DNA of 64,000 nt from the sequence record MW650886.1. One strand, written 5' to 3'. This stretch comes from Escherichia phage vB_EcoM-ZQ1. Position 1 is the stretch's first letter, and the number at the start of each line of letters is the position of its first letter. Positions 3,122 through 64,000 of this stretch are shown here, piece by piece. A model generated the notes under the pieces. That model made no database searches, was not told where the DNA came from, and was given only the letters and a program-made list of their open reading frames with translations. A program made the translations under genes and the position numbers.

Positions 3122-6100
3122 TCAGATCTTAATCTGCATGTTGCCACCCAGGGACTGCTCGTACTCGCTGTATGCGCCTTCCCCGTAGTCTCGTGCCCAC
3201 TGGTCAGACTGCTGGGCGCTATCCAGAGTCATCAGGTTTGGTTCAGTCGGGTTGTAACCCTTGGACTTCGCATCCCGGTACAGAGTCTGCAGGTACTGGT
3301 TGGCGCGGTCAATCTGAGCTTTGAACTCGCGATATGCCCCTTCAGTTGTGTTGCGGCGGAAGGTGATATCCCAGTCCACGTTCAGAGTCTGACCATCACG
3401 GCTTGCATAGATCTGCCAATCCAGGTCGCGGCCTTTTGGTGCGTTGTCGCGGATGGAGTCGGCGTATGCCGCAAGGTCGTCCTTCGGATTGTGCGACGTG
3501 CTTTTCAGAAGTAGTGCATGACCCATACCACCGTTTGGCTCAAGAGACCATTTTCCTGTTTCTCTTCCCAGGCGTTCTATGTTGTTGAGTTGGTTTATCG
3601 ACAATTCAGAAGAGTCAAATAATACCACATCACGTTTTTTGGGGGTTCTCACATAAGGGGTGAGATCAATGTCGATCATCCGGTTTATAAATTCTACCAC
3701 TTCAGCTTGTTTCTTTGGCAATGTGGTATTGATATCCGGCTTGTTTGCCACTTTCTCTAGGCGTTTATTTTCTGCGCTTATCATGGACAGCATAATTTGT
3801 GTAACTTTGCCGTCAGACAAGTTGTAATCATTCCAAATCACTTCACCTTTATCCGTGATGGTTATATCGTTCAAGAACACCTGGTTTGGGTTGTATGACT
3901 GACTTTTCAACTGTTGGAGGTTTCTGGAAAGATATACCATTTTTGATGAAATCTCATCAATCACACTCTGGACCATATCTTTGTTTAAAGGAAGTTCATA
4001 TGTCTTCGGATTGTTCAGGGTACGCCCTTTCTGAGAGACAATTGGGGTGAATGCAACTTTACCTTTGTCGTAGTAATAGGTCACGTTGGTTATCATAGAA
4101 GTACCGGCGTATTTTCCCGTTTCGGGGAAATTGACATCCCACCGAATGGACATGCCGTTGACAGTCTCACCAAACACCATGGCGTTGCTTGGTATCTTCA
4201 GGGTTCCAGAGTTGACCAGATCAGCGCCTTGGGCATTCAGGTCGATAGAACCATAGATAGCCCCGGTAATACGATCTTTCAACATCAGGGTCTTGTCGCC
4301 CTTCTCTGGGATGATTTCCAGCGGGTGCTTGCCACGCGGAGGTTCTTTGATGAGTTCCAGTAGAGCAGTTTTCCCTGGTTTCACACGATTCAGGACAGCG
4401 TCGGACACTGTCAGAGTCCAGTTTGCGGTTTCCACATAACCCCAGCCCCGAGAACGGCGAATGGCTTTGATAGGATATGGAGCGCTTGTTGGCACTGCGC
4501 TAATTTCCCATTTGCCAGTGTACTGGGTCTTGGCAACCTCAAAGATGGACGCAATTACTGCATTGGCGACGTCACGGGCGCTACCTTTGGCCACGTTCTC
4601 CTCTTCAGCAATTTCGCTGAAAACTGAGTATTGAACGAAACCAGCGAGGACGTTTGTGAAGTTGACAACGATAACCAACCCGCCTGCTGTCGTGTAACGA
4701 CCAGCGCCCACACGACGGATGTTTTCACCAGGAAGAATAGAAGTGTCCAACCCAACGTTGGTATCAATGATACCCAGAACACGAGCGATGAAACCACTGT
4801 CACGTAATTGATCAACACTGGTTGCACCCTCGGTCGAATCCGATGCGGATTTAGACACTTTGTTCAACTTGATAGAGACAAGGGTTTCCCCGTTGACACC
4901 GATGATATCCCATTCAGTACCCTGCTCGTTCGAGGTGCGGGCAATCTTGCGCTTTGAATTGATGGCACCTTCGTAACGCCCGTTCTTGACCACAACAGAG
5001 GCAGTAGCAGCATCAGTCGCACTTGCTGCATTTGAAAAGTCTGGGTCAGAAATACTGATGTCGACGTCACCGTTTTGAGAACGCATGCGAACACCGTTTT
5101 TGAATCGTTCAACGTTTACTTCTCGAGCACCAAGTCGTTTGGCATCAATAACAGCAGTTCCAGAACCGATAATGTTGGCTGGGTTATTTCTGTCTGAACT
5201 GTTTTGAGAACCTTTCCAAAATTTTGTAGACGCCATGGTGAAATCATTCAGGATATTGATAGGGACTTGCGGTAATTTCAACTGACGAGCAATGAAATCA
5301 GCACTTTGCCCACGCACAGGTTTCTCATTCATGTATGCGCCAACATACACGCCCGGCTCATTGTAGTGGGGAGCGATATTTGCCGTGTTCGTGCGGCCTC
5401 TCTCCTTACCAGCCCATAACAACATGGGCTGATCCCCGTTTGAAGTTAATTTCCATCCGTTGCCATTGCTGGTGTCATTGCTGGTGTCATTGCTGGTGTC
5501 AACGTCCACCACCAGAATTATCTGAGCACCTTTCTTGAAAGTGTACTGATCGTACATACCTTTCTTCTGTTTGGTCATGGACGCACCGACCAAGTCTTGG
5601 TTGGTGAAGCCGCGCTTCATATTCCAAGATACCTCAGTCCCGTCTGGATATTTGTCAAAATCATAACCATAGAATGTGGCTACTTCTTTCGAACCGCTTA
5701 TCAGACGGACGTAATTTCCACGAATCGGGTCTCGCCCGCTCTTCAACTCCAGACCAGTGTCCGAGCTGTTGTACCACTCGCGGTTGACTTCTATTTCAGA
5801 AGAACCAGCCCCAACTCCCACATCCGGAGTATTGTTCTGAACCGGAACGTCACCGACTTTGTCTGGATCATCCCAGGTGATACCCTGCATCTTCGGACCG
5901 TCGAATACCTGAGCCGGATCTTTACCCTTACGAACTAGCCACACATAACCACGGTCAGGAACAGGCGCGTAGGTCAGGTCCATGACGTTCAGTTTCTGCT
6001 TCAGGCCGGACTGGCGGATGATCTTAGGAATCAGGGTCATACCGCGATCCAGCGCTTTCTTAGAGAAGTTGACAGCAAAGCCATCGATGGTCTTACCCAG

Positions 6101-6412
6101 AGGGGTCGCCATGAATTGTTTGGTCGCTTCGATCATGGAAGCGATAACGCGCATTGGGTTCTTGAAGCGAGCGATGGCGTCAGGATAGACGGAGCCGCGC
6201 TTCTGGCCGATGAAAACCTGACGAACGCTCTTGCCCAGCCCCTGAGGAGTATAGAACTGAATGCGGTATTCCTTATCATCTTCGTCGACGAAGGTAAAGA
6301 ACACATCGCCTGCGTTCTTCTTACCCATGGTCAGCTCATACGGAGCGGAGTTGAACGCTTCGTCTAACTGATCTCTTTCCTGCATGAACTGGAGGAAACT
6401 TAGCTTTGACAT
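3122..6412 (-). CDS. large hypothetical protein (1096 aa) with internal (DTSN)x3 repeat
   Basis: long uninterrupted ORF; no polymerase or ATPase motifs seen; CTAATTA late-like motif upstream. Confidence 0.6.
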   Translation of the reverse strand: MSKLSFLQFMQERDQLDEAFNSAPYELTMGKKNAGDVFFTFVDEDDKEYRIQFYTPQGLGKSVRQVFIGQKRGSVYPDAIARFKNPMRVIASMIEATKQFMATPLGKTIDGFAVNFSKKALDRGMTLIPKIIRQSGLKQKLNVMDLTYAPVPDRGYVWLVRKGKDPAQVFDGPKMQGITWDDPDKVGDVPVQNNTPDVGVGAGSSEIEVNREWYNSSDTGLELKSGRDPIRGNYVRLISGSKEVATFYGYDFDKYPDGTEVSWNMKRGFTNQDLVGASMTKQKKGMYDQYTFKKGAQIILVVDVDTSNDTSNDTSNGNGWKLTSNGDQPMLLWAGKERGRTNTANIAPHYNEPGVYVGAYMNEKPVRGQSADFIARQLKLPQVPINILNDFTMASTKFWKGSQNSSDRNNPANIIGSGTAVIDAKRLGAREVNVERFKNGVRMRSQNGDVDISISDPDFSNAASATDAATASVVVKNGRYEGAINSKRKIARTSNEQGTEWDIIGVNGETLVSIKLNKVSKSASDSTEGATSVDQLRDSGFIARVLGIIDTNVGLDTSILPGENIRRVGAGRYTTAGGLVIVVNFTNVLAGFVQYSVFSEIAEEENVAKGSARDVANAVIASIFEVAKTQYTGKWEISAVPTSAPYPIKAIRRSRGWGYVETANWTLTVSDAVLNRVKPGKTALLELIKEPPRGKHPLEIIPEKGDKTLMLKDRITGAIYGSIDLNAQGADLVNSGTLKIPSNAMVFGETVNGMSIRWDVNFPETGKYAGTSMITNVTYYYDKGKVAFTPIVSQKGRTLNNPKTYELPLNKDMVQSVIDEISSKMVYLSRNLQQLKSQSYNPNQVFLNDITITDKGEVIWNDYNLSDGKVTQIMLSMISAENKRLEKVANKPDINTTLPKKQAEVVEFINRMIDIDLTPYVRTPKKRDVVLFDSSELSINQLNNIERLGRETGKWSLEPNGGMGHALLLKSTSHNPKDDLAAYADSIRDNAPKGRDLDWQIYASRDGQTLNVDWDITFRRNTTEGAYREFKAQIDRANQYLQTLYRDAKSKGYNPTEPNLMTLDSAQQSDQWARDYGEGAYSEYEQSLGGNMQIKI
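5463..5498 (-). repeat. in-frame 12-bp tandem repeat x3
   Basis: cattgctggtgt repeated three times, encoding DTSN-DTSN-DTSN. Confidence 0.8.
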
Positions 6413-6487
6413 TTTATATCTCCTGATTGAATTAATGGCGGTTTCTTCTAATTAGCGAAACCAAAAGGGAGCGTCAGCCCCCTTATC

Positions 6488-22979: not shown

Positions 22980-25181
22980 TTAGATTTTGATTTCTTTCTC
23001 TGTCAGTTCGGCAGTGACCTTGTACTTCACGCCATCCACTTCAACTTCCATGGTGGACTCTTCCAGGTCGAGATCGGTGAACCAGCCATGGCCAGCAACG
23101 ATACCATAAACCACTTTAGACAGCGTCTTGTTCAGGGCACGGACTTCGGTGATGGCCGCCTTGGCAGCAGCGTCGATCCAGTTTTCGATCAGCTGTTTCT
23201 GTAAGGCTTCAGGCACGGCAGTGATCATAGGAGACTTCACGAATGCTTCGTACTCCTTCAGCGCATTGGCGATGAACAAGTCACCAGCATTGAGTTTCTT
23301 GTTCTCGGCAATCTTCTTCTGTACCGCTGCGATAGACGGTAGAGATGAAGCGCCAGCGATCTTCACGTTCAGCTCACGGCTCATGTAGAAGTCGGTAGAC
23401 TCTTTGGTCTCAGTCTTCGGTGAGAATCCGTAATCGCGGATGCCGTAGGAGGACAGGAACTCGGCCGCCTCAGCGCCGTACTGTACTGCCAGGCCTTTGG
23501 CGTTACCCTTACCAACCAGGGCGTCTCGATAGAACTTCAGCACCTTCTGCTTGCCTTTCAGGGCTTCCAGACGGACATTATCCGCAAAGAACTGAGCAGC
23601 ACTGATGTTCTTGACCATGGCGCGGTTGACCAGCGGTACGCTTTCCAGGTTCAGGACAAACACTTCCGGACCACCAAACACGTGGACGCCCATTTCGATC
23701 AGCTTCTGTACAACTTCGATATCAGCCTTGAACGGTAGAGTCTTCACGTTAATGATACCGTCTTTGACGATGGTGTAGTTGCGCCACTGGAAAGTATCCA
23801 GTTCTTCAGGCAGGCCAAACTTCTTCTGTGCGAATTCAGGCACAGCCACAGTACCGTGTTGAATTGTACGCACGCTGATGTTCGGGCGCTCGGAGTTATA
23901 GACCAAATCGCTGATTGGCACAACACCCAGGTCGTTGGTAGGTTCGAACGTCGGGTTCCACTCTTCGTGTTCTGCCAGCTTGAGAGCCAGGGCTTTACGC
24001 TCTTCTTTGGACTGAGCATTCGCGATCTGTTCTGCCAGCTTGTCTTCGGTGTCGTCGGTTTTCTGCACAGTACCGCGCCCGATGCTCTTATAGGAGAACA
24101 TCGGATGCTTGGTAGCAACAGGCACACCAGCTTCAGCCAGGTACGTCAGCACGTCAACGACGGTCGTCGCATCTTCAGCCGGAACCAGGTCATAGTCAAT
24201 ACCGTCAACGCCGCGCAGCTGGTCATCAACGATGGCCTGGGTCAGATCGTTCTTGATGTTGGAGTAGTCCTGCTTGGTGAAGCAGTTGCTGTACTGTTTG
24301 ATGAAGCGAACGTCGCCCGTCTTCTTCAGCGCAGCCCAAACCAGATCTGCGTCCATAGTGTGTACGCCGTAGAACGCCAGCACATATGCCGCCTGGATGT
24401 CCGTCAGGCTATCCATCTGGTCGATCATGTTGGGGTTTACAACCCACAGCTTGGTGACGCTCTCAGGGATGCTCACGTGGCCGATAGGATGGTCTTCATC
24501 CGGCTGTACCGCCAGCACAGTTGCTACGCCGTTTTCAACATAGATGGCGTGGGTGTATAGCAGAGGCACATCAACAACCACCTTCGGCACTGATGACTTC
24601 AGCACGTTTTCCAGTTCGGTCTGGTATTCGGTCTGACCTTCGGCAAACACGTGAGTTGCGCCAGAGCGCTCGGACATCTGCGCCAGCAGTTCACGGTTAC
24701 AGTGCCAGCCGTATTCGATGAAAGTAATGTTATCGAACGCGGAAGGAAGTTTTTCGGCGGTATCCAGGATTTCATTGGAGTGCCAGCAGTTGTCATAACC
24801 ATCGGTCATGAATGCCAGGTTGTTGACGTAGCCAGGTTTCTTCAGGTCACGCGCAGTATCCATCGCCAGTTTCAAAGGCTCAACAAAGCCAGTACATCCG
24901 GACGGTTGCAGGAAGCGATCGATCAGTTTGTTCAGCTCGCTCAGGTCAGACGCAGCACTAACCTGGCGGCCAGCGAACACAGTACCAAAGTCTCCTTTGG
25001 AGGAGAAATACAGAACGCTCACAGTGTCTTCCGGTTTCACCAGGGAAGGCAGGTTCTCCTTCAGATGCTTACGGACTTCAGGGAGCGCACGGTACATAGA
25101 GCCGGAAATGTCTACAACGATTACATGGTTGGACGGAGCAGCAGTCGCAACCGCATTCTTAAATTCTAATGATTCAATCAT
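22980..25181 (-). CDS. von Willebrand factor A (vWA) domain protein (~733 aa)
   Basis: MIDAS motif VIVVDISGSM near N-terminus; start at internal ATG 25181 with GAAGAAGG RBS. Confidence 0.6.
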   Translation of the reverse strand: MIESLEFKNAVATAAPSNHVIVVDISGSMYRALPEVRKHLKENLPSLVKPEDTVSVLYFSSKGDFGTVFAGRQVSAASDLSELNKLIDRFLQPSGCTGFVEPLKLAMDTARDLKKPGYVNNLAFMTDGYDNCWHSNEILDTAEKLPSAFDNITFIEYGWHCNRELLAQMSERSGATHVFAEGQTEYQTELENVLKSSVPKVVVDVPLLYTHAIYVENGVATVLAVQPDEDHPIGHVSIPESVTKLWVVNPNMIDQMDSLTDIQAAYVLAFYGVHTMDADLVWAALKKTGDVRFIKQYSNCFTKQDYSNIKNDLTQAIVDDQLRGVDGIDYDLVPAEDATTVVDVLTYLAEAGVPVATKHPMFSYKSIGRGTVQKTDDTEDKLAEQIANAQSKEERKALALKLAEHEEWNPTFEPTNDLGVVPISDLVYNSERPNISVRTIQHGTVAVPEFAQKKFGLPEELDTFQWRNYTIVKDGIINVKTLPFKADIEVVQKLIEMGVHVFGGPEVFVLNLESVPLVNRAMVKNISAAQFFADNVRLEALKGKQKVLKFYRDALVGKGNAKGLAVQYGAEAAEFLSSYGIRDYGFSPKTETKESTDFYMSRELNVKIAGASSLPSIAAVQKKIAENKKLNAGDLFIANALKEYEAFVKSPMITAVPEALQKQLIENWIDAAAKAAITEVRALNKTLSKVVYGIVAGHGWFTDLDLEESTMEVEVDGVKYKVTAELTEKEIKI

Positions 25182-25344
25182 CGTTATTGCCTTCTTCAGG
25201 GTTGTCTTCGGCCTCACCTTCCGGCTTGGCCAGCATATATTCAAGGAAGTCGCGATTGAGTTCAATCTGACTCATCAGCGTTTCGCTCGGTTTAAAGCTG
25301 AGGTCGATGGTGTCTAGACCAGCTTTCTTGAATGGTTCTGTCAT
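25174..25344 (-). CDS. small acidic protein (56 aa), not in ORF track
   Basis: ORF whose stop overlaps vWA start (ATGATTGA). Confidence 0.3.
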   Translation of the reverse strand: MTEPFKKAGLDTIDLSFKPSETLMSQIELNRDFLEYMLAKPEGEAEDNPEEGNNDD

Positions 25345-25437
25345 GGTTAGTCGACCTTCACTTCAGTAACACCAGGTATTTCACGGACATGGGCCAGGCC
25401 TCTGTTTGTTAGTCATGGCGTATTATACTGCGAAGGG

Positions 25438-25683
25438 TTAATTGAAACGCCCAGCATTTACGCTGGACGTTATTGATATTGAAAAGGTTTTGACAAACTC
25501 AGGATTTGGAGGAAGCACCCTTCCATGTCTGCCGTCGCCATGGGCATGGCAACCGACACGGGCATCACATGGAGTGCACACCCAGAACTTCAGATTGCGG
25601 AGGTCAGGGCGATGAGGGTAGAGAACATCACCACCGACGAATTCGGCTGGGAGGCCACAGTAATCACATATAACAGGTTTCAT
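25438..25683 (-). CDS. zinc-ribbon protein
   Basis: CDYCG ... CTPCDARVGCH Cys/His cluster. Confidence 0.45.
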   Translation of the reverse strand: MKPVICDYCGLPAEFVGGDVLYPHRPDLRNLKFWVCTPCDARVGCHAHGDGRHGRVLPPNPEFVKTFSISITSSVNAGRFN

Positions 25684-28292: not shown

Positions 28293-29513
28293 TTATTCAG
28301 GTTTCTTCAAACGGTCCAGCAAATTGACGGAACCACGTTTGAGCACGACTTCATCACAGCGCTTTTTGTATTCCCCACCGCCGTCATATCCAACCTTCCC
28401 GCGCGGTTTTTTACCTTGCTGTATGGCCTCTACACAACGAGTATATTTCGACAATTCACAAAAGTGGTTTTCTAATTGTTGAACATTCATACACTGATCC
28501 CAAGGCTCTTCCGCAGACCAAAATTCTTCCCTGTTATACCCAAGAGGGCCATAAACCGCGTCCTGATTGTCCCGCAACCAGAAGATGCATTCTTCATGCG
28601 TCATGCCATCTTTGTCCTGGAACATCAGGTCGATCCCTGCGCGACAGCCTGGTCCAGCAACCGTGAAGTGGTTCTCACTGAAAGGATATTCAGGAATGTA
28701 AGTGAAGTCAACCCATATCTGATAGGCCAGGAATGGGCCAAGCCCTTCGATGTCGTCATACATGCGCTGGTATACTTCCAAAGGAGTACCAAGGCGCAGC
28801 AGGTCATGGAAATAATTTGGATACTTGTTGACGAATGCCTTCAGGGAGCGGATGACACGCATTGGCATGTACGGTTCCCAACCTTCGATGGTGTAGAAGT
28901 CCGGCTCTGCTTCGGCTATCGCCTTGGCTTCTTTATAATCCATGTTCTGGGTTGAACCGTCTTTACAGATCAGATTCACCATCATCCCACCGAAGCGCTG
29001 CTCCTTGTGGTTGACAACCATCTCAGGGAAAGCCAGGCATTGCTTCAGGCCGCCCGTGTTGAAGGCATTGGTGAATACCTTACCACCGTCGGCCTCGAAC
29101 TTCTGAAGTCGTTCGCGGGTTGCATCGAGGTTGATCTCGGCGAATTCTTTGATCGTCATCGCGCCGCCGATAGCCTGGATTGGATCCCAGAGGTTGAACA
29201 TGCGGAACAACACGCAGTTGAACATCTTGTCGGCCATACCCAGAGCATCATTCTTGGCGATGTTGTTGATCAGGTTGAGAGACTGCCTGTCGTGCTCTCT
29301 CCGGACGTTACAGAATTTAACCTGGCGTAGTATGGGATTATCAGTCCAAGGAGCAGGAAGGCGCTGGACGTCCTTCTTGACGTGGATCTGATAACGATCG
29401 CGCATCCATTCGTAAGACAGGCGGGTATGGGTCGGGCTGAGAACCGGTTTGGCCGACTTTATCTTTTCTTCACGGACACCGCAGTACGGGACGTCCAGGG
29501 CTTTATCTTTCAT
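28293..29513 (-). CDS. hypothetical protein (406 aa)
   Basis: long ORF; family not recognised by eye. Confidence 0.55.
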   Translation of the reverse strand: MKDKALDVPYCGVREEKIKSAKPVLSPTHTRLSYEWMRDRYQIHVKKDVQRLPAPWTDNPILRQVKFCNVRREHDRQSLNLINNIAKNDALGMADKMFNCVLFRMFNLWDPIQAIGGAMTIKEFAEINLDATRERLQKFEADGGKVFTNAFNTGGLKQCLAFPEMVVNHKEQRFGGMMVNLICKDGSTQNMDYKEAKAIAEAEPDFYTIEGWEPYMPMRVIRSLKAFVNKYPNYFHDLLRLGTPLEVYQRMYDDIEGLGPFLAYQIWVDFTYIPEYPFSENHFTVAGPGCRAGIDLMFQDKDGMTHEECIFWLRDNQDAVYGPLGYNREEFWSAEEPWDQCMNVQQLENHFCELSKYTRCVEAIQQGKKPRGKVGYDGGGEYKKRCDEVVLKRGSVNLLDRLKKPE

Positions 29514-33863: not shown

Positions 33864-35368
33864 TCGTGATTACCCAGCGCCACCTTCATGAACTCCACAG
33901 GGTGGCGCTCTGCCAGGTAAAACTTGTAACGCTCGTGAGAGTGCCTAAGAGCGTGGTTCGTGCTGGCGTTGTACGATGCATCATCCACTAAGTCCCATAT
34001 CCACGCGACGTCCTTAGAGGAGTGCTGACGCATCAGACGACCCAATGTCTGTATGACGCGGATATATGACTTGCTCGGGTGTGCCAGTACAAGGTGGTGT
34101 AGCTTCTTGATCGACACTCCCTGCTGCATTGTCCCGTATGAAGCCAACAACGTGATATCTTCTCCATCCTCCATCGCTTTCTGTATGCGGCGGCGGTCTT
34201 CGATCTTCACTTCCCCGTTGATGACAAACACGTTGGGCTTGACTGCGCTCAGCATATCGTACACAACCATCATGTGGGCGTCAATACGCTCGAACATGAT
34301 GGCCACGTTCCCTTTCAGATTCAGTGCCATCTTGGCGATCAGTTCGTTGCGGGACTGGTGTGTGATAAGGTATTCTATTTCCTTGGAATAATCCCCGTCC
34401 AGACCAACAGCATCCGCCGGAGTGTGCTTCAGCTGAATCATCTTCACTTTGATGTCAGTGGCGTATCCGAGATTGATAAGATCGCGAGCCGTGATGATCT
34501 TATGGTACGCCCCGAAGTGAGCCACCACCTGAAGCCCGGCAACTTTGGTATTCGCCAGCGTACCTGTAACCCCCAAGCGCTGGTCGGCATAGATGCAGTT
34601 GTTTAGGATGTAAGACAGTTTCTCAGACTTGGAGGTGTGCACTTCATCCACCACGATATCACCGAACTGGTGGAACCATTCCTTCGGTTGATCTTGAATG
34701 CCTTGCCATGTACTGATGACGATTGGTTTGCTGATCTCCTTTGTCGCGCCCTCAAAAATCAGCTGGGTGTTAACAACGGGCTTCCAATCACTGCCATGCG
34801 CATACTCTTCGAAGTTGTCGTACAGCTGAGTGACTAAGTGGATTGACGGCACCACGATAAGCGTCTTCAGAGGACTTTCGAGAGCTTCTCTGCGCCGCCT
34901 GTAGTACCGCGCCATGACATACAGAATAAAGGACTTACCGGCACTCGTAGCCAGTTCACAGACGCATCTGGTTTGACGCATAGCCTTGGCGATGGTGTCG
35001 TACTGGTAGTCACGAGTCTCGGCATCGATATATTCGTGATTTTCGGTGCGGATCTTTGGATGCAGACTGTCGATGAAGTCACGGATTTCTTCATCTGGGA
35101 TGTCCTGAATGTACTTCAGCGCCGGATCCAGTTCAATGGTGTATCCGTTGTTCTTACAGAACTTAAATACCTCAAACAGCAGACCGATATCGATTAGACC
35201 AGATGACTTGGTAAATAGGCGGACAACCCCGTCCCATTTAGAGAAGGGGTTGGGAACGAAGTTCGGGTCTTCGAATTTGAAGTAGTCATTAAGTTCTTCC
35301 CTGATAGAAAGATCTGCGATGCAACGCATGCGGACTTCGTTAACCTTAACAATCTGAATGTCTGCCAT
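33860..35368 (-). CDS. uvsW: SF2 helicase, UvsW-like
   Basis: Walker A TSAGKS, DEVH box; ~500 aa; neighbour of UvsY-like gene as in T4. Confidence 0.6.
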   Translation of the reverse strand: MADIQIVKVNEVRMRCIADLSIREELNDYFKFEDPNFVPNPFSKWDGVVRLFTKSSGLIDIGLLFEVFKFCKNNGYTIELDPALKYIQDIPDEEIRDFIDSLHPKIRTENHEYIDAETRDYQYDTIAKAMRQTRCVCELATSAGKSFILYVMARYYRRRREALESPLKTLIVVPSIHLVTQLYDNFEEYAHGSDWKPVVNTQLIFEGATKEISKPIVISTWQGIQDQPKEWFHQFGDIVVDEVHTSKSEKLSYILNNCIYADQRLGVTGTLANTKVAGLQVVAHFGAYHKIITARDLINLGYATDIKVKMIQLKHTPADAVGLDGDYSKEIEYLITHQSRNELIAKMALNLKGNVAIMFERIDAHMMVVYDMLSAVKPNVFVINGEVKIEDRRRIQKAMEDGEDITLLASYGTMQQGVSIKKLHHLVLAHPSKSYIRVIQTLGRLMRQHSSKDVAWIWDLVDDASYNASTNHALRHSHERYKFYLAERHPVEFMKVALGNHD

Positions 35369-38600: not shown

Positions 38601-38810
38601 TCATGGTAGTTTGTAAACGAAGTTGGACCAGAACTTACGAACAAACTTCTTGACATAAACCATTCGGTTGGCGTATTCCCCATCCTTCAGGTCATTGTAG
38701 GTCTCGATCCCTACCGCGCCCAAGAAGTACGCCGTGAAGATATAGCAGAACAGATTGATGACGACAAACATGATGTATCTCCGCTGTGTGTTGAGTTTAA
38801 TAAATACCAT
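38601..38810 (-). CDS. small membrane protein (69 aa)
   Basis: hydrophobic helix FVVINLFCYIFTAYFLGAVGI. Confidence 0.4.
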   Translation of the reverse strand: MVFIKLNTQRRYIMFVVINLFCYIFTAYFLGAVGIETYNDLKDGEYANRMVYVKKFVRKFWSNFVYKLP

Positions 38811-38851
38811 ACAATGTTTTCCGCGAACCAGAAGCCGAACGGGTAGTCACA

Positions 38852-39235
38852 CTACAGGTGTCCCTCCGGAGCTTTCTTGCAACGGTTGATCATGTCCAGG
38901 GTGCCAGTGGACGAACCATCCCACATCGCAATCGGATACACTTCCAGCTTGGTCTGTCTGACGAGATCCAATGCCTTGTCTAACATGTCCTGATTGCGTT
39001 TGTTGCCCATCCCTTTCCCATACTTTTCATAATAGCTCGGAGGGATCGGCATGGGGGTGATATGAACATAATTGATTTCAGCCCAGTCACGGCAAATCTT
39101 GTCTACACCAGAGGCTTCACCCTCAATCAGTGTATAGACTTCATGAGGATCGAGGAGTTCGTCCAGCTTGGCGAATACCTTATCCCGCTCGGTGATTGAG
39201 CGGGAACCCGTAATGAGAACGATATACTTCTTCAT
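38852..39235 (-). CDS. SLOG / DUF2493-like Rossmann-fold protein
   Basis: MKKYIVLITGSRS ... GEASGVD pattern. Confidence 0.45.
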   Translation of the reverse strand: MKKYIVLITGSRSITERDKVFAKLDELLDPHEVYTLIEGEASGVDKICRDWAEINYVHITPMPIPPSYYEKYGKGMGNKRNQDMLDKALDLVRQTKLEVYPIAMWDGSSTGTLDMINRCKKAPEGHL

Positions 39236-48474: not shown

Positions 48475-50274
48475 GTGAGGATATTTATTATGCCATTCCC
48501 CGATAAAAATTGTTCATGCTGCCACAAACCGTTCACCCCAACCAGGAAGGCTGCGTTGTATTGTAGTGACGAATGTAAATCATTCATGCTGGGAACGATG
48601 AAACGCAATCCGAGTTTGTTGGATAACATCCCGACGACCGAAACCGAATGCCGCTCTTGGGTTGATAGTAAACTCAGGAAGAAAGATGGTTCGTTGAACT
48701 ACAAACTTATCTCTCATCCCCTACTCACGGCCCATACTGGGGTTGATGTTGTTGGATACGTGGTGTCACACAACGACCTATTAGAAGAACCACAAGCGAT
48801 AACTGCTTGGCTGTACGATATTCCGAAGTCGCAGTGTGTCACTTGCGGTGCTGACGTTGGCTTAGAAATGGAAGCCCAACCACCCAGATACAAAAAGTTT
48901 TGTTCCGAAGAATGTCAACGAGAATCGATGAAGGCGGGAGGCTCAGAACGGACCAACCTAGAAAGCGCCATATCAGAGAAATATGGCGTTTCTAGCACAT
49001 TCCAGCTGGAAGAAGTAAAACAAAAGTCACGGGAAACTGTCCTTAAGAAATATGGGGTCGACCACCCTATGAAGTCTGATGTTATAAAGGACAGAGTGGC
49101 TGCTTCCGTCATGGAACGCTATGGCGTATCACACGTCATGAAAATGCCAGAAGTGAGGGAAAGGGTGATTGAGACTTGGAGGAAGATCTATGGTGTGGAT
49201 CATCCAATGTTCCTCAATTCCATTATAGAAAAGAGAAAGAAAACATGCGTCTTAAAATATGGGGTTGATTATCCGTTGAAGGTAAAGGCTATATGGGATA
49301 GAAGCCAGGTCAATACCAGGATCATTTCAAAAGAAAAATACGGCGTACCTCACTATTTCTCTTCTGAAGAATATAGGAACTCTTTCACGTACCCCAGCAG
49401 CCAAAGCCAAACACAGCCAGAAATAGAAATATGTTCATATCTGGAGTCATTGGGCGTTATATGCGAATCTGGTAATTTCTCCATCCTCAGAGGTAAAATG
49501 TTCGACGGAAGGGTGACCACACGCCAGATAGACATATACTGCCCAGAACATAAGTTGGCAATAGAATTTAACGGCTTGTACTGGCATACAGAGAAACATC
49601 GATACAAAGACTACCATCTTGAAAAGACCATGTACTGTGAAGCCCAGGGTGTTCAATTAATCCATATCTGGGAAGATGAGTGGCGTGACAAACGGGAAGT
49701 GGTTAAATCACTCCTTAAAGCAAAATTGGGGATAGGGAAACCATTGTCATACGCTCGCCAACATACCATTTTAGAAGGCTCCTATAGGACGTCCAAGGAC
49801 TTTCTCGACCGATTCCATATACAAGGTGGTGTGGTGGCGACAGATTATATACACCTTGTAGACAAAACTGGGAATATCCAGGCGGTGATGTTGTTTACCA
49901 AACGAGTGCATGGTATTGAATTGGTGAGATTTGCTTCTAACAATTGTCATGGCGCATTCTCACGCTTGCTGAAATATTATATCGCTCGACATCGGGGTGA
50001 GACAGTATATTCTTTTGGTGATCGTTGTGTTGTCAGTCGTCTGAAAAATGTTTACCTGAATAACGGATTTGTTGAAAAGGAAATCCTTCCCCCTGATTAC
50101 AAATATGTGACTCCGGACTATGGCTCACGTATACACAAATTCAATTTCAGGAAAGAGAAATTCCTTAAACTTGGATACGATGTAGAAGGTAAAACAGAGG
50201 ATATGCTGGCGATAGAAGCCGGGTTGGGGCGTATCTGGGGGTGTGGTCTTATCCGGTATGAACTGGAAAACTAA
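48475..50274 (+). CDS. free-standing homing-endonuclease-like protein (paralog of 41023..42495)
   Basis: plus-strand gene inside minus-strand tail module; same Zn-ribbon, YGV..PMK repeat and Vsr/DUF559-like domain. Confidence 0.65.
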   Translation: MRIFIMPFPDKNCSCCHKPFTPTRKAALYCSDECKSFMLGTMKRNPSLLDNIPTTETECRSWVDSKLRKKDGSLNYKLISHPLLTAHTGVDVVGYVVSHNDLLEEPQAITAWLYDIPKSQCVTCGADVGLEMEAQPPRYKKFCSEECQRESMKAGGSERTNLESAISEKYGVSSTFQLEEVKQKSRETVLKKYGVDHPMKSDVIKDRVAASVMERYGVSHVMKMPEVRERVIETWRKIYGVDHPMFLNSIIEKRKKTCVLKYGVDYPLKVKAIWDRSQVNTRIISKEKYGVPHYFSSEEYRNSFTYPSSQSQTQPEIEICSYLESLGVICESGNFSILRGKMFDGRVTTRQIDIYCPEHKLAIEFNGLYWHTEKHRYKDYHLEKTMYCEAQGVQLIHIWEDEWRDKREVVKSLLKAKLGIGKPLSYARQHTILEGSYRTSKDFLDRFHIQGGVVATDYIHLVDKTGNIQAVMLFTKRVHGIELVRFASNNCHGAFSRLLKYYIARHRGETVYSFGDRCVVSRLKNVYLNNGFVEKEILPPDYKYVTPDYGSRIHKFNFRKEKFLKLGYDVEGKTEDMLAIEAGLGRIWGCGLIRYELEN

Positions 50275-58983: not shown

Positions 58984-61900
58984 TTATGCCAGAGCAATCA
59001 AACGGAAATCTTTGAATGACGGCGGTGCTATGCGGTTGCCTCTGACCAGCAGGCGGATCTTCAGGCCAACGAAAGGATTGGTGCTCTCTACAGTCTTGTC
59101 ATACTCATATTCGAAGAATGTAGAACCGTCATTGACCAGAGGGGATGTCGGTGTCACAGTTTCCCATGCCACATTATCCATCTCCTGACCTGCGCGCAGC
59201 AGTTTAACCTGCACAGTCATTGAAGACTGAGAAGGTAGCATCGCGCCGAAGTATTGCTTCAGAGTGGTGCAAGGGTTATCGAATCCGATATCCTTGGTCA
59301 CATAGCTGAACACATCTTCAAACGGATCCACACCGTAGGTGTTGAAGATGATAGTGAAATCATCACCGTCGATCATTGGAGCCGTGTAGACATTACTCTC
59401 GTTGCGAGTCATGGTTGCACGAACCTGGAAGTCGCCCACCTGACGATAGATACCTTCCGTCGGCAGAGACACGTCCGTATCGGATTCGAACTCAACCCAA
59501 TCAGAGAATGAGTTGGAGGTCGCATCGCGATAGCGGTATTCCAGTTTCAACACAGATCCTTCTAGGGCTGAATTGGTGACGCTTGCGTAGAACATGTCTA
59601 CCAAGTAGTTGCCTAGGAAAGAAGCCGCTTCGCCACCAATCTGACCGTCGGAGTCGGCGTTGGAACTCAGAACGAATTTGAACGTCGTGAACGTCGCATC
59701 AGTCACAGTGTGTTGGGCGTTCAGCTGCTCAGGAGTGAAACCGCAACCACCCGTCAACCCAGAAAGAGTAACACTTTCACCCGCAGTCAGGCCATGCCCC
59801 GGAGCGTACACAGTAACAGTTGAAGAACCGTTGACACATTTCACGGTGTTCAGACCCAGAGGGCGGATCTTCGGACCGACTTTAGCATCGAAGGTCACGA
59901 TGTTTGAACCAGCGGAGAAGTTACAGCGATATACACGGAACTTCATATCGGCAGTCTGGTTTGGAGTCCAGGTCGTACCATTTGAAGATGTGAAGAACAC
60001 GCCAGTGTACGGCTGTTTGGCAATGAACTCGTTGGTCAGCAAGTTCTTCTTACCCATCTCTGCGATGTATGCGTTGTAGTCCTGAGTGTTGGCCAAGAGA
60101 ACAATCGCGAACTCAGTCTGCGCCTGCAGATACACAGGATAATCAAACTTGAACATCGTTGGCACAGAAGAGTCTGTGGAGGTGGAAACTTCTGATGGAT
60201 TCAGAGTCTTACGAGTGACGACAGTCGTCGCTGGCAGACCATTGCTCATCTCACGGATTTCCAGAGTGATCGGGATATCACGGGACTTGGTGGAGAAGAA
60301 GACTTCAATCCCTTCGATGTATTCGCCGCCGATATTGGTGGCAACCATGAAGGACTGGGCGATAGGATCTTTCCACTTCGCGACTTCAACCGTCTCTGTT
60401 TTGTTTTCCGTAGACTTGGTCGCAGTGTATCCCAGGACGCGGGTGTTGACATAAGTCTTCTGGATGCCCTGTTTCTTTCCGAAGGACTTATGAACAGCCT
60501 CGGCATTGGTCAGGGTATCATCAGCAGACTTACTGTCCACAGGACTGTCAGTCAGACGGAAGACGTTGTCACCCGTGTTAAACTTGATAGTCTCGTTCTG
60601 AGGAACCGCAAACACACCTTTGATGTTACCGTTGGCATCAGTGTTCAACGCACCACCCAGTACACCACCGTTTGGGGTACAGTACGCGCTCACATCACGC
60701 CCAGAGAAGAACGGATACACACGAGTGAACGGACGCAGCCCTGTGGCTTCGAAGTTGATGTTCGTTTTGCGCATGTATGGGATAACCTGCGTTTCAACGA
60801 TCTGCTCGCCAGTCAGGGTAGTGGTCGTCTTGTCGGTGTACGTGTACGTGGTGACGTCACGGGTAGACACAGTCGTGCGGTAGCGATAGCCCCACCATAC
60901 ACCACCTGCACCATGCGGTTCCCACACACGCTCAGACACGGACACAGTACGCCATGTGCCATACACAGAACCTTCTTTGATCGCACCACGGGTGTTGATC
61001 GTTTCGTTGATCACCCGTGGAGTAACATAGTAGTTCTCAAACCAGTAATCAGTAGTTGGGTTCAGCTTCAAGAAACCTTCCCAGTTGAACACCGCATACG
61101 GGTTCACGTTGATGGTCGTGGTTGCATAGTCCTGGCGGACAGAGATCTCACGGGTGTAGTTGCATACAACCATGCCATCCTGAACGTTGTTCCAACCGAC
61201 TGGCGTCAGGTCAATCGCGTTCTGCTGAACAAACGGGCGTAGGCGACCATTGTCGGTGTCGATTGAACCCACCCAGTCTGCAGACAAATCGTCGATCAGA
61301 CGGAAGTCTTTGAACGGGTCTGCTGCGATACCGTTCTTGAAGCGCGGGTTGCCAGTAATTGGATCGAACACCTGTTGTGACATCGCCGAGGATTCCAGCT
61401 GAGACAGTGAGGTGTAATATTCGACATTCGAGATACGGGTCTCCAGTTTACCGATATCACGCATCGTGTAGCGGCGGTTGTCGATAGTACGAATCTGGAT
61501 GTCGTCAATGTTGGCCGTGTATGGTGGGATCATCAATTCATACAGACGCATACCGTTGTCTGGGATCGCAGGGGAAGCCAGGTTGTTGGAACTCACACCA
61601 CGAGCAACGTTGAACACACCGTTGTCTGCCAGATACACAGCATCAATACGAGGCAGATAGTACTCTGCATCTAGGATGATCGCGGTGTTCGGGCGAACCA
61701 TGTCCGTGTCAGACGCTCCGCTGGTGATCTTGGGACGGAAGTCCAGACTGTCGGCCAACCCATACACAGTACCAGAACTGGATGAAACATAGTTCGGGAT
61801 GTCTGGGTAGTTGATGGACGAATAGGAGTCCGCTGTAAAGAAATCACCAGAGCTGTGAGCGAAATACTGATACACCACCGTGAACGTCCCTGAAATGGCT

Positions 61901-63259
61901 CCTGTGGACGATATGAGGTTAGAAAGGTAGTATGCAGCATCACGCTGACCGCCGTCCAGAGTGAAGTTAGAGGTGACGTCAGCGCCATTTGCGTTCTTCA
62001 CGCTGATCAGCTTGTAACCATCATGGTTCCCAAGTTGTGCGCTGGCCGCCGCAGTAAACGTCACAGTCTCGGTGGCTTCGGTAACAGTCTTGGTCTTGAT
62101 CGTCGCTGTGGTGCGGACCATCAATGCCAACAGGTTGATAGACTGGTTGGCGTACCCCGCGCCCAGGGAAATCTGCAGTGCTGAACCAACCGGAGTACCA
62201 GCCAGGGACAGTCCCGAAGAGATATCAAACTGAGCTGCAGTGCCATCTGCCTTCGCTGCGGAGTACAGTGAAAACTCAGGGCTGAAGCTGTAACCCAGAG
62301 GAGCGGAGATTGAGCCTGCACCAGCGGCGTTCAACGTGATCTTGTTTGACCGCAGGACGGTGTAGTTGATGTCGATGGTGCCTGTAGGTGCTAGGGTCTT
62401 CACACCAAATACAGGCAGAGGGAAGATCAGGTCAATTGCTGAACTCTGGCTGAACTGATTGGACTCCAGTTCGCAGGAGAACATCGTTGTACCGCTTTCT
62501 TCATAAGCGACTTTGGTCACCGTACCCATGTCCCCAGTCACAACCAGGTCGCGCATATACAGACGGAATTCAGTACCGGAGCGCTCTGCCGAAATCAGCA
62601 GGGCGGTGGCCTGCACATCGCTGGATGCGTTCAGGAACTTGTAGCGGATTGTGCGGGAGACAACCGGAACCCCTTTGGAGTTCTTGGACACCAGATAGTT
62701 GCCAGTCGAAACAGCCACAGGGTTGTTGTTCAGGATATCAGTGTCACGGGCTTTGTCAATTATGACCAGCTCTTCGCCGAGGTTTTCGATACGACGACCA
62801 CGAACGTAGGATATCCCTGGCTTCATAACCGCCACGAATTTGCTTTCATCACCACCTTCAGCCGGAGTGTAAACGCCGCCGTTGTTGTTCTGTTTCAGAT
62901 GTTCGCGCAGGTCGATCTGGTGAGTAGAGACGTTGTAGATGTTCACGCAGGTCGATCTGGTGAGTAGAGACGTTGTAATCCCCGTTGGTCTCATAAGTGC
63001 GCTGCGCCATACTGTCTTCGAGGATGTTGTAGGTGGACTGGGTCACCATGGACTGAATGCGACCGTCTTTCACCTTCGCCAGTTCAACGAAGTCGGCCAC
63101 TTCTTCATCATAACCGTAGCGAGACAACACGAGGTCGACGCGCAGGCGATGCGCACCAGGGGCTTTAGAGTTCGGAGTACCCTGAGCATTGGAGAACAGA
63201 CTTTCATCTTCTGCTTCGGTTCGTCGGAGTTGTAGGTCCTTGTATGGCGCCTGCTTCAT
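58984..63259 (-). pseudogene. large virion structural gene (tail fibre/baseplate-like, ~1411 aa if intact) split by a frameshifting 40-bp tandem duplication
   Basis: ORFs 62858..63259 and 58984..62994 overlap in different frames; both encode YNVSTHQIDLREHL across the duplicated 40-mer. Confidence 0.6.
62898..62977 (-). repeat. 40-bp tandem duplication, 1 mismatch
   Basis: gatgttcgcgcaggtcgatctggtgagtagagacgttgta followed by the same with g to a at position 8. Confidence 0.85.
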
Positions 63260-63329
63260 TTGCGGAAACCAGTACGCGCGTTGTTATCTAGGTGGGCTGT
63301 CATCGTCGTCGGTGTGGTATCGGCTGTGC

Positions 63330-63794
63330 TTACTTTAATAGCAAGTGCAGCATCCACAACTTCATGTCCAACAGTCCAGCTTCGAAACCGTCTGAACTAC
63401 CACTCTCAGTCATCTCTAAGATGGCATACATTGTATCCGGCTCAGCTGGATAACGTTCCAAAGACAGGACGCGTGCTTTCGCATTGTTGTCCTTGCCCAG
63501 AACATAGAGTTCGGAGATACCTTCCAGATCAGTGAACTCACTACCACCAGCCAGAGTGAACTTCATGGACACAGCAGTATTGGTGATCGTCAGGCCGCCG
63601 GGGATAACCATTGAACCGTCTTTGAACAGATGGTTGCCAAGTTTCTCCAGTTGATCCTGGAAGATGGTCTGCATCTGGTTCAGTTCACGCGTCTGAACTT
63701 TGATAGGTGCCGGACGGAATAGAATGCGCGAAAAACGCTTCTCTGGATTCCAGTCATCCCAATATGGGCGGCGGTTGAGGTTCATTTCTTGCAT
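63330..63794 (-). CDS. hypothetical virion-module protein (154 aa)
   Basis: internal ATG 63794 with GGAG RBS and upstream CTAAATA motif. Confidence 0.45.
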   Translation of the reverse strand: MQEMNLNRRPYWDDWNPEKRFSRILFRPAPIKVQTRELNQMQTIFQDQLEKLGNHLFKDGSMVIPGGLTITNTAVSMKFTLAGGSEFTDLEGISELYVLGKDNNAKARVLSLERYPAEPDTMYAILEMTESGSSDGFEAGLLDMKLWMLHLLLK

Positions 63795-63835: not shown

Positions 63836-64000
63836 TATACAACCAACCGAGGAATAGAAAGAAATAAGCCCGAAGGGGCTTTGATTATCTTTCTGCGGTT
63901 ATGGTCATGGATTCTAGACCTCCGCATTCTTCAGGAACTATCGCAGGTAGTGCTGGTACAGCCAAGGAATAGAGAACACAAACAAGACGAACCAATGGAA

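Follow-up and report, generated by a model that had tools for sequence, protein, structure and literature searches.

Results

The DNA analyzed was a 64,000-nucleotide stretch, here called the window, from the genome of Escherichia phage vB_EcoM-ZQ1, whose accession number is MW650886.1 (PMC10510151). The phage is an Agtrevirus-like member of the Ackermannviridae, and the records nearest to the window are those of LHE287, A221, AV101 and vB_CECAV_050 (96-99% identity). The terminal part of the window carries the remains of vriC, the gene for a large virion/baseplate-associated protein with a DUF4815 domain, the start of which was placed by matching the first 30 nt of the gene in relatives. In AV101, CECAV_050, LHE287, SKML-39, Ag3 and A221, vriC is a single CDS of 4,839 nt (1,612 aa), and annotations at the locus read VriC, virulence-associated protein or structural protein; the Ag3 record (orf00206) labels the product a phage structural protein. 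The protein of a relative matched Pfam DUF4815 (PF16075; E=8e-61), and VriC also matched PDB entry 9euf, a 'DUF4815 domain-containing protein' (E=9e-54). In relatives the gene has the gp13 neck gene on one side and the tailspike (tsp) genes on the other; the tsp side of this arrangement is taken from the relatives, as the window stops just upstream of vriC. vriC is known to flank the tailspike cluster and to be well conserved (PMC8432352, PMC11721090), its conservation extending over 99 genomes (PMC8432352), and the protein may form baseplate 'prongs', given in the same papers as resembling baseplate proteins of phages A511 and phi812 (PMC11721090, PMC8432352). All 120 homolog clusters listed from a large protein collection consisted of single proteins of 1,570-2,031 aa, and the C-terminal 1,303 aa of the window's protein were 99% identical to one of them, cluster P0001 (1,612 aa).

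No uninterrupted ORF of about 1,600 aa was present in the window. The gene was instead found as fragments of 154, 133 and 1,283 or 1,336 aa, an arrangement seen in none of the homologs, which are single ORFs. Alignment to relatives detected two departures, namely, a 40-nt insertion and the presence of 155 nt (63221..63375) in place of 223 native nt. These resolved into five lesions located within 480 nt in the 5' fifth of vriC: a 40-nt duplication, a 72-nt gap, a block of complemented sequence and insertions of 1 and 3 nt (Table 1). A base-by-base alignment detected no frame disruptions in vriC outside this 480-nt zone, and the gene outside the lesions was 98% identical to that of relatives. 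Comparison of the undamaged 3,953 nt with A221 and LHE287 gave 59-67 synonymous and 5 nonsynonymous codon changes, which points to strong purifying selection on vriC up to the present. An old pseudogene was ruled out by this synonymous excess together with the lack of scattered frameshifts or stops outside the lesion zone.

Table 1. Features of the window, with mismatches to nine intact backbone-type vriC genes (four isolates and five independent read-derived Logan/ENA assemblies), Ag3 and SKML-39
Feature	Coordinates	Strand	Description	Backbone mismatches	Ag3 mismatches	SKML-39 mismatches
Remains of vriC (DUF4815 large virion/baseplate-associated protein)	58984..63794	-	4,811 nt; 4,839 nt (1,612 aa) in relatives			
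N-terminal fragment ORF	63330..63794	-	154 aa; QVW27222.1; stops inside complement block			
Middle fragment ORF	62858..63259	-	133 aa; QVW27221.1; starts in complement block, ends out of frame after duplication			
C-terminal fragment as deposited	58984..62835	-	1,283 aa; GTG start at 62835; QVW27220.1, 'hypothetical protein'			
Left flank of duplication	62896..62497		400 nt	2-11	34	29
Copy 1 of 40-mer	62897..62936	-	G at 62905; backbone (A221/AV101/CECAV_050) allele, continuous with backbone-type sequence to the left	0 (LHE287: 1)	1	4
Copy 2 of 40-mer	62937..62976	-	A at 62945; Ag3/LHE287/SKML-39 allele; opens Ag3-identical patch	1 (LHE287: 0)	0	3
Ag3-identical patch	62977..63061	-	85 nt; Ag3 is a Shigella phage	9-14	0	10
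Backbone-type segment	63062..63220	-	Ends at 63220/63221	0-1	8	9
In-place complement block	63221..63375	.	No match as written; co-linear with native vriC when complemented without reversal; mismatches are for the complemented block with indels removed	23-26	2	0
Second in-place complement block	38791..38869	.	38793..38869, 77 nt, preceded by an extra TT			

Two adjacent 40-nt copies with one mismatch, as described in the original prediction, were confirmed by Tandem Repeats Finder (62897..62977; period 40, 2.0 copies, 97% matches, score 155) and by direct reading. The span 62898-62977 given originally is the same array shifted by one base, the A after copy 2 being equal to the first base of the unit. 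Copy 1 begins AGATGTTCGCGC and copy 2 begins AGATGTTCACGC, the sole difference lying at unit position 9 (62905 G, 62945 A). Allowing up to 3 mismatches, the 40-mer was found at these two sites only in the window and in 0 of 100 dinucleotide-preserving shuffles. Also as predicted, the copies lie where minus-strand ORFs 62858..63259 (133 aa) and 58984..62994 (1,336 aa) overlap, and in each ORF one of the copies is translated as YNVSTHQIDLREHL; a unit of 40 nt is not divisible by 3, and the duplication does frameshift a large structural gene. Microhomology at the duplication junction amounted to 1 nt. In a search with 140 nt around the repeat, all 12 relatives listed had one copy, with the query mapping onto about 100 nt, and one copy was also present in all six relatives that were aligned, so that copy number did not vary among them. 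These relatives have one gene at the locus, and two separate genes with the same boundary, the arrangement that would have spoken against the prediction, were not found. The duplication junction GTAGAGACGTTGTAGATGTTCACGCAGGTCG had no match in the IMG/VR or JGI metagenomes, and neither did a lineage-specific 47-50-mer covering the switch between Ag3-type and backbone-type sequence. Folding of the mRNA around the repeat was not better than that of shuffled sequences (minimum free energy of -33.7 kcal/mol compared to a shuffle mean of -32.7; z=-0.27).

The second cluster of lesions was located approximately 245 nt upstream of the repeat. As written, the 155-nt block there had no match elsewhere in the window, in relatives, in 50,697 phage records (including low-stringency and protein searches) or in E. 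coli genomes, plasmids or IMG/VR. These matchless searches, which covered the block and its most ORF-like translation, ruled out a foreign insertion, a mobile element, an intron or a true inversion, and the base composition did not fit a shuffle of the native segment. When complemented but not reversed, the block aligned co-linearly at its orthologous position in vriC and matched 283 Ackermannviridae records in the phage collection, the best being SKML-39 (E=1e-66), to which it was identical at 151 of 151 positions, indels aside. Relative to SKML-39, the run of C at 63294..63296 was one base too long, and the AGC repeat at 63303..63311 had one additional unit. Directly left of the block, 72 nt (24 codons; reference nt 571-642) were absent at 63220/63221, with a GGT microhomology at the junction. 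The two strands of DNA are antiparallel, and inversion, template switching or recombination gives a reverse complement, never a co-linear complement. Because only reverse complements can arise in this way, a co-linear complement is a signature of informatics and not of mutation; it results when a sequence is reversed instead of reverse complemented or when the bottom strand in a double-stranded display is read off from left to right.

The effect of the individual lesions was examined by stepwise repair. The original prediction held that deletion of one copy would fuse the two ORFs into a single protein of about 1,411 aa. Removal of one 40-mer and nothing else left the first vriC stop at codon 154, so restoration of the vriC frame by repeat collapse was not observed. 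Complementing the block in addition moved this stop only to codon 188, and further deletion of the +1 and +3 insertions gave an open frame of 1,588 codons. When the 72 nt were also restored, vriC was exactly 4,839 nt (1,612 aa) long. The predicted product of about 1,411 aa was correct as arithmetic for the two ORFs concerned but did not hold as a description of the gene, which in relatives encodes 1,612 aa and in the window starts at 63794. Likewise, the N terminus assumed for the 133-aa ORF is meaningless, its ATG at 63259 lying inside the 155-nt complement block.

A scan of the whole window for in-place complements detected a second block at 38793..38869, 24 kb from the first. When complemented, it showed an identity of 100% with Ag3, MK-13 and P46FS4 and of 93.5% with the backbone genomes. 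This block cuts the C terminus of an SLOG/DUF2493 (YspA-like) protein (38852..39235), which has 127 aa compared to 140 aa in the relatives listed. Base swaps of the A<->C/G<->T and A<->G/C<->T types were absent from the whole window, complements being the only transform that occurred. A SOLiD colour-space decoding error was not favoured, as both of the other transforms of the colour-space type were lacking.

The extent of damage elsewhere was assessed by comparison with approximately 79 CDSs of LHE287. Those with a counterpart in the window were intact, with the exception of vriC, the SLOG gene and a 44-aa ORF that showed a trivial N-terminal difference and was matched to LHE287 from residue 7. 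Since nearly all genes with a counterpart were intact, the record is not generally error-ridden. Six LHE287 CDSs had no or only a partial counterpart; these fall in a segment of about 3.7 kb (LHE287 94083..97785) that carries genes for NAMPT and ribose-phosphate pyrophosphokinase and small ORFs and in place of which the window has about 340 nt (25186..25525). This replacement probably represents natural variation in Agtrevirus gene content, and a mis-join is conceivable given the state of the record. Two further differences from LHE287 were observed. At 4200..5833, within ORF 3125..6451 (a hypothetical protein of about 1,100 aa), BLAST segments occurred in swapped order, with 5205..5462 matching 74827..75084 and 5468..5829 matching 74424..74785 of LHE287, and a 12-nt tandem repeat (3.2 copies) was present at 5464..5501. 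The ORF stays open; hence, a repeat-domain protein with a natural rearrangement is likely. A segment of about 1.4 kb (48701..50160) that separates the tail tube gene from the next one was not present in LHE287 apart from a weak reverse-strand similarity (74%) to 113528..113760; by analogy with the homing endonucleases annotated there in relatives, we would guess at a mobile insertion of the homing-endonuclease type.

The lineage of each piece around the repeat was then compared (Table 1). The single-base difference between the two 40-mers was found to segregate among relatives, with G present in A221, AV101 and CECAV_050 and A in LHE287, Ag3 and SKML-39. The sequence is of the backbone type up to the end of one 40-mer, after which the 40-mer restarts with the allele of another lineage. 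On these alleles, the arrangement is best read as an unmerged 40-nt overlap of two pieces and the single mismatch as an allelic difference between the pieces joined. The original prediction had taken this mismatch as an argument against polymerase stutter; an allelic difference would explain it. The foreign patches of the window's vriC were present in none of the nine intact backbone-type genes, and no single database genome could account for both, Ag3 being perfect for one and SKML-39 for the other. Ag3-type runs were also present at other sites in the window where the structure is undamaged, and an independent genome has some of the same runs; for this reason, a switch of lineage does not by itself prove that pieces were pasted together. 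Short lesion-free Ag3-type patches at 24225..24242, 24741..24761 and 34142..34310 were absent from the backbone-type genome DRR771914; they reflect either natural mosaicism or further signs of a record that is chimeric between two Agtrevirus lineages. The Logan contig DRR771914 encodes the same 406-aa protein as the window (28296..29513), yet it is only 97-98% identical and thus represents another phage.

The lesions were already present in the record as deposited. The vriC fragments are annotated in GenBank as separate hypothetical proteins of vB_EcoM-ZQ1. QVW27220.1 was identical to the window ORF at 1282 of 1282 residues, the other compared members of its cluster of VriC homologs differing by at least 4 residues, and QVW27221.1 formed a singleton cluster among approximately 15 billion proteins. 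An exact look-up identified the shortened SLOG protein as QVW27195.1 (127 aa). As the fragments are already annotated as QVW27220-27222, the lesions did not arise after the GenBank deposit. They were peculiar to this one record and left no trace in close relatives or independent assemblies, including the nine intact backbone-type genes, five of which are from Logan/ENA. A literature search for a paper on how the vB_EcoM-ZQ1 genome was sequenced found none.

Discussion

From the sequence comparisons described above, we infer that the 40-bp duplication is an artefact of sequence construction in MW650886.1 and reflects neither phase variation nor a pseudogene, and we put the probability of this reading at roughly 0.9. 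In the phage itself, vriC is almost certainly a single, intact gene. An assembly artefact had been listed as one option by the original prediction and is now the favoured explanation; the phase-variable or genuinely inactivating duplication offered beside it fits poorly with the single copy in relatives, the lack of a recoding structure and a cluster that contains a biologically impossible change. The artefact could have arisen by the joining of a left piece of the backbone type, ending in the 40-mer with G, to a right piece of the Ag3 type, starting with the 40-mer carrying A, the two being concatenated with their 40-nt overlap unmerged. A 155-nt piece would also have been put in the wrong sense, reversed and not reverse complemented, giving the co-linear complement, with the same fault being made at 38793..38869. 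The 72-nt gap would be a further finishing error, and the +1 and +3 insertions would be homopolymer and repeat errors within the 155-nt piece. The most economical guess as to workflow is an assembly, either fragmented or guided by a reference, that left gaps at locally divergent patches. Manual work or a faulty script may later have filled these gaps with small pieces, placed in the wrong sense and with untrimmed joins.

Unlike the complement blocks, the duplication taken alone is a type of lesion that biology can make. T4-like phages generate tandem duplications, and if two variants infected the same cell, unequal or illegitimate recombination between them could conceivably produce this junction, with a different allele in each copy. 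A genuine mutation of this kind in the ZQ1 stock, involving two Agtrevirus variants and disabling or pseudogenising vriC, with only the complement blocks being informatic, would be in keeping with the segregation of both alleles in natural relatives and with the Ag3-type mosaic patches that are free of lesions elsewhere in the record. Against this, vriC is one ORF in all relatives examined, is annotated as encoding a structural protein in Ag3 and is under strong purifying selection in the window; because the gene is conserved, structural and selected, a fixed frameshift is unlikely in a plaque-purified lytic phage. Furthermore, 245 nt separate the duplication from lesions of demonstrably non-biological origin, the only other counterpart gene to be truncated (leaving aside the trivial 44-aa ORF) is also cut by a complement block, and there is almost no microhomology at the junction. 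We therefore consider a genuine mutation unlikely, with a small residual chance. The chance is similarly slim that the duplication alone is real and represents a revertible vriC frameshift, possibly carried by a sub-population of the ZQ1 lysate, that arose by unequal recombination of two co-infecting Agtrevirus lineages. If it were real, VriC, the proposed baseplate 'prong' protein, would be dispensable or a mixed population would be kept by complementation.

A variant of the artefact reading, as opposed to a biological rival, is that the sample was mixed and that an automatic assembly, not finished by hand, merged a major backbone-type phage and a minor phage of the Ag3 clade into one chimeric contig. 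It would account for the patches identical to the Ag3 clade inside a backbone-type gene. The block sizes of 77 and 155 (2 x 77 + 1) nt are those typical of de Bruijn graph edges at k=77, a numerical coincidence that was kept as a lead only, since the blocks are not single-SNP bubbles. Standard assemblers treat the strands symmetrically and, to our knowledge, emit no sequence that is complemented without being reversed; moreover, de Bruijn overlaps are exact, yet the two 40-mers differ. This origin was accordingly given a slimmer chance than a genuine mutation. Practically negligible is the likelihood that production of full-length VriC is controlled by the two-copy repeat, acting as a phase-variable switch or as a site of programmed recoding by frameshifting or by bypassing of the T4 gene 60 type. 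The repeat does place the same codons at take-off and landing sites that are 40 nt from each other, and its collapse to one copy by recombination would be expected to restore the frame locally. It was, however, present in none of the relatives listed or aligned and is thus not a conserved device, the mRNA showed no unusual folding, and a 40-mer present twice is not the kind of simple-repeat tract that is prone to slippage. Even after collapse or bypass of the repeat, the upstream block would still destroy vriC. Construction of the record from unmerged and wrong-sense pieces remains the explanation that best covers the duplication and its neighboring lesions together.

These results have consequences for the use of the record. 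The errors in MW650886.1 comprise small indels, a gap of 72 nt, a 40-nt overlap left unmerged and at least two wrong-sense blocks. As artefacts of annotation, the proteins QVW27220-27222 and the truncated QVW27195 are unsuitable for comparisons of VriC, of tailspike-cluster boundaries or of gene content. vB_EcoM-ZQ1 has been described as encoding only two tailspike genes, while most Agtrevirus phages encode four (AV101 paper, PMC10791037). Given the neighboring errors, this count, which concerns the tsp cluster past position 64000, may be a problem of assembly and not biology. BLAST tests the given strand and its reverse complement only; in-place complements are consequently invisible to it and resemble orphan or 'novel' sequence. 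Genome-scan pipelines would gain at little cost from a step in which unalignable islands are complemented without reversal.

The locus can be compared with several known systems. With the tandem-duplication frameshift mutants of T4-like phages and with contingency loci, it shares a direct repeat in a virion gene whose length is not a multiple of 3. It differs from them in that the repeat is neither conserved nor polymorphic in relatives, consists of two long copies and has non-biological lesions alongside. As in translational bypassing of T4 gene 60, there is a coding gap of tens of nucleotides between identical codons that could in principle be hopped, but the window has no stabilising structure, relatives have no conserved gap, and the upstream damage makes bypass moot. 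The gene itself occupies the same locus and carries the same DUF4815 domain as VriC of other Ackermannviridae (AV101 WJJ54140.1, Ag3 orf00206, LHE287 XAN60316.1), the undamaged parts being 98% identical in nucleotides and about 99.6% identical in amino acids; in those relatives vriC is one 4,839-nt ORF, whereas the window has three ORFs and five lesions. The locus also resembles errors of unmerged overlap and wrong-sense insertion in finished or edited records. The tandem duplicate shared with such errors lies exactly at the junction of pieces of different origin, and other shared features are complement blocks that become perfect once complemented, indels in homopolymers and short repeats and restriction to a single record, the workflow in the present case being inferred from the sequence.
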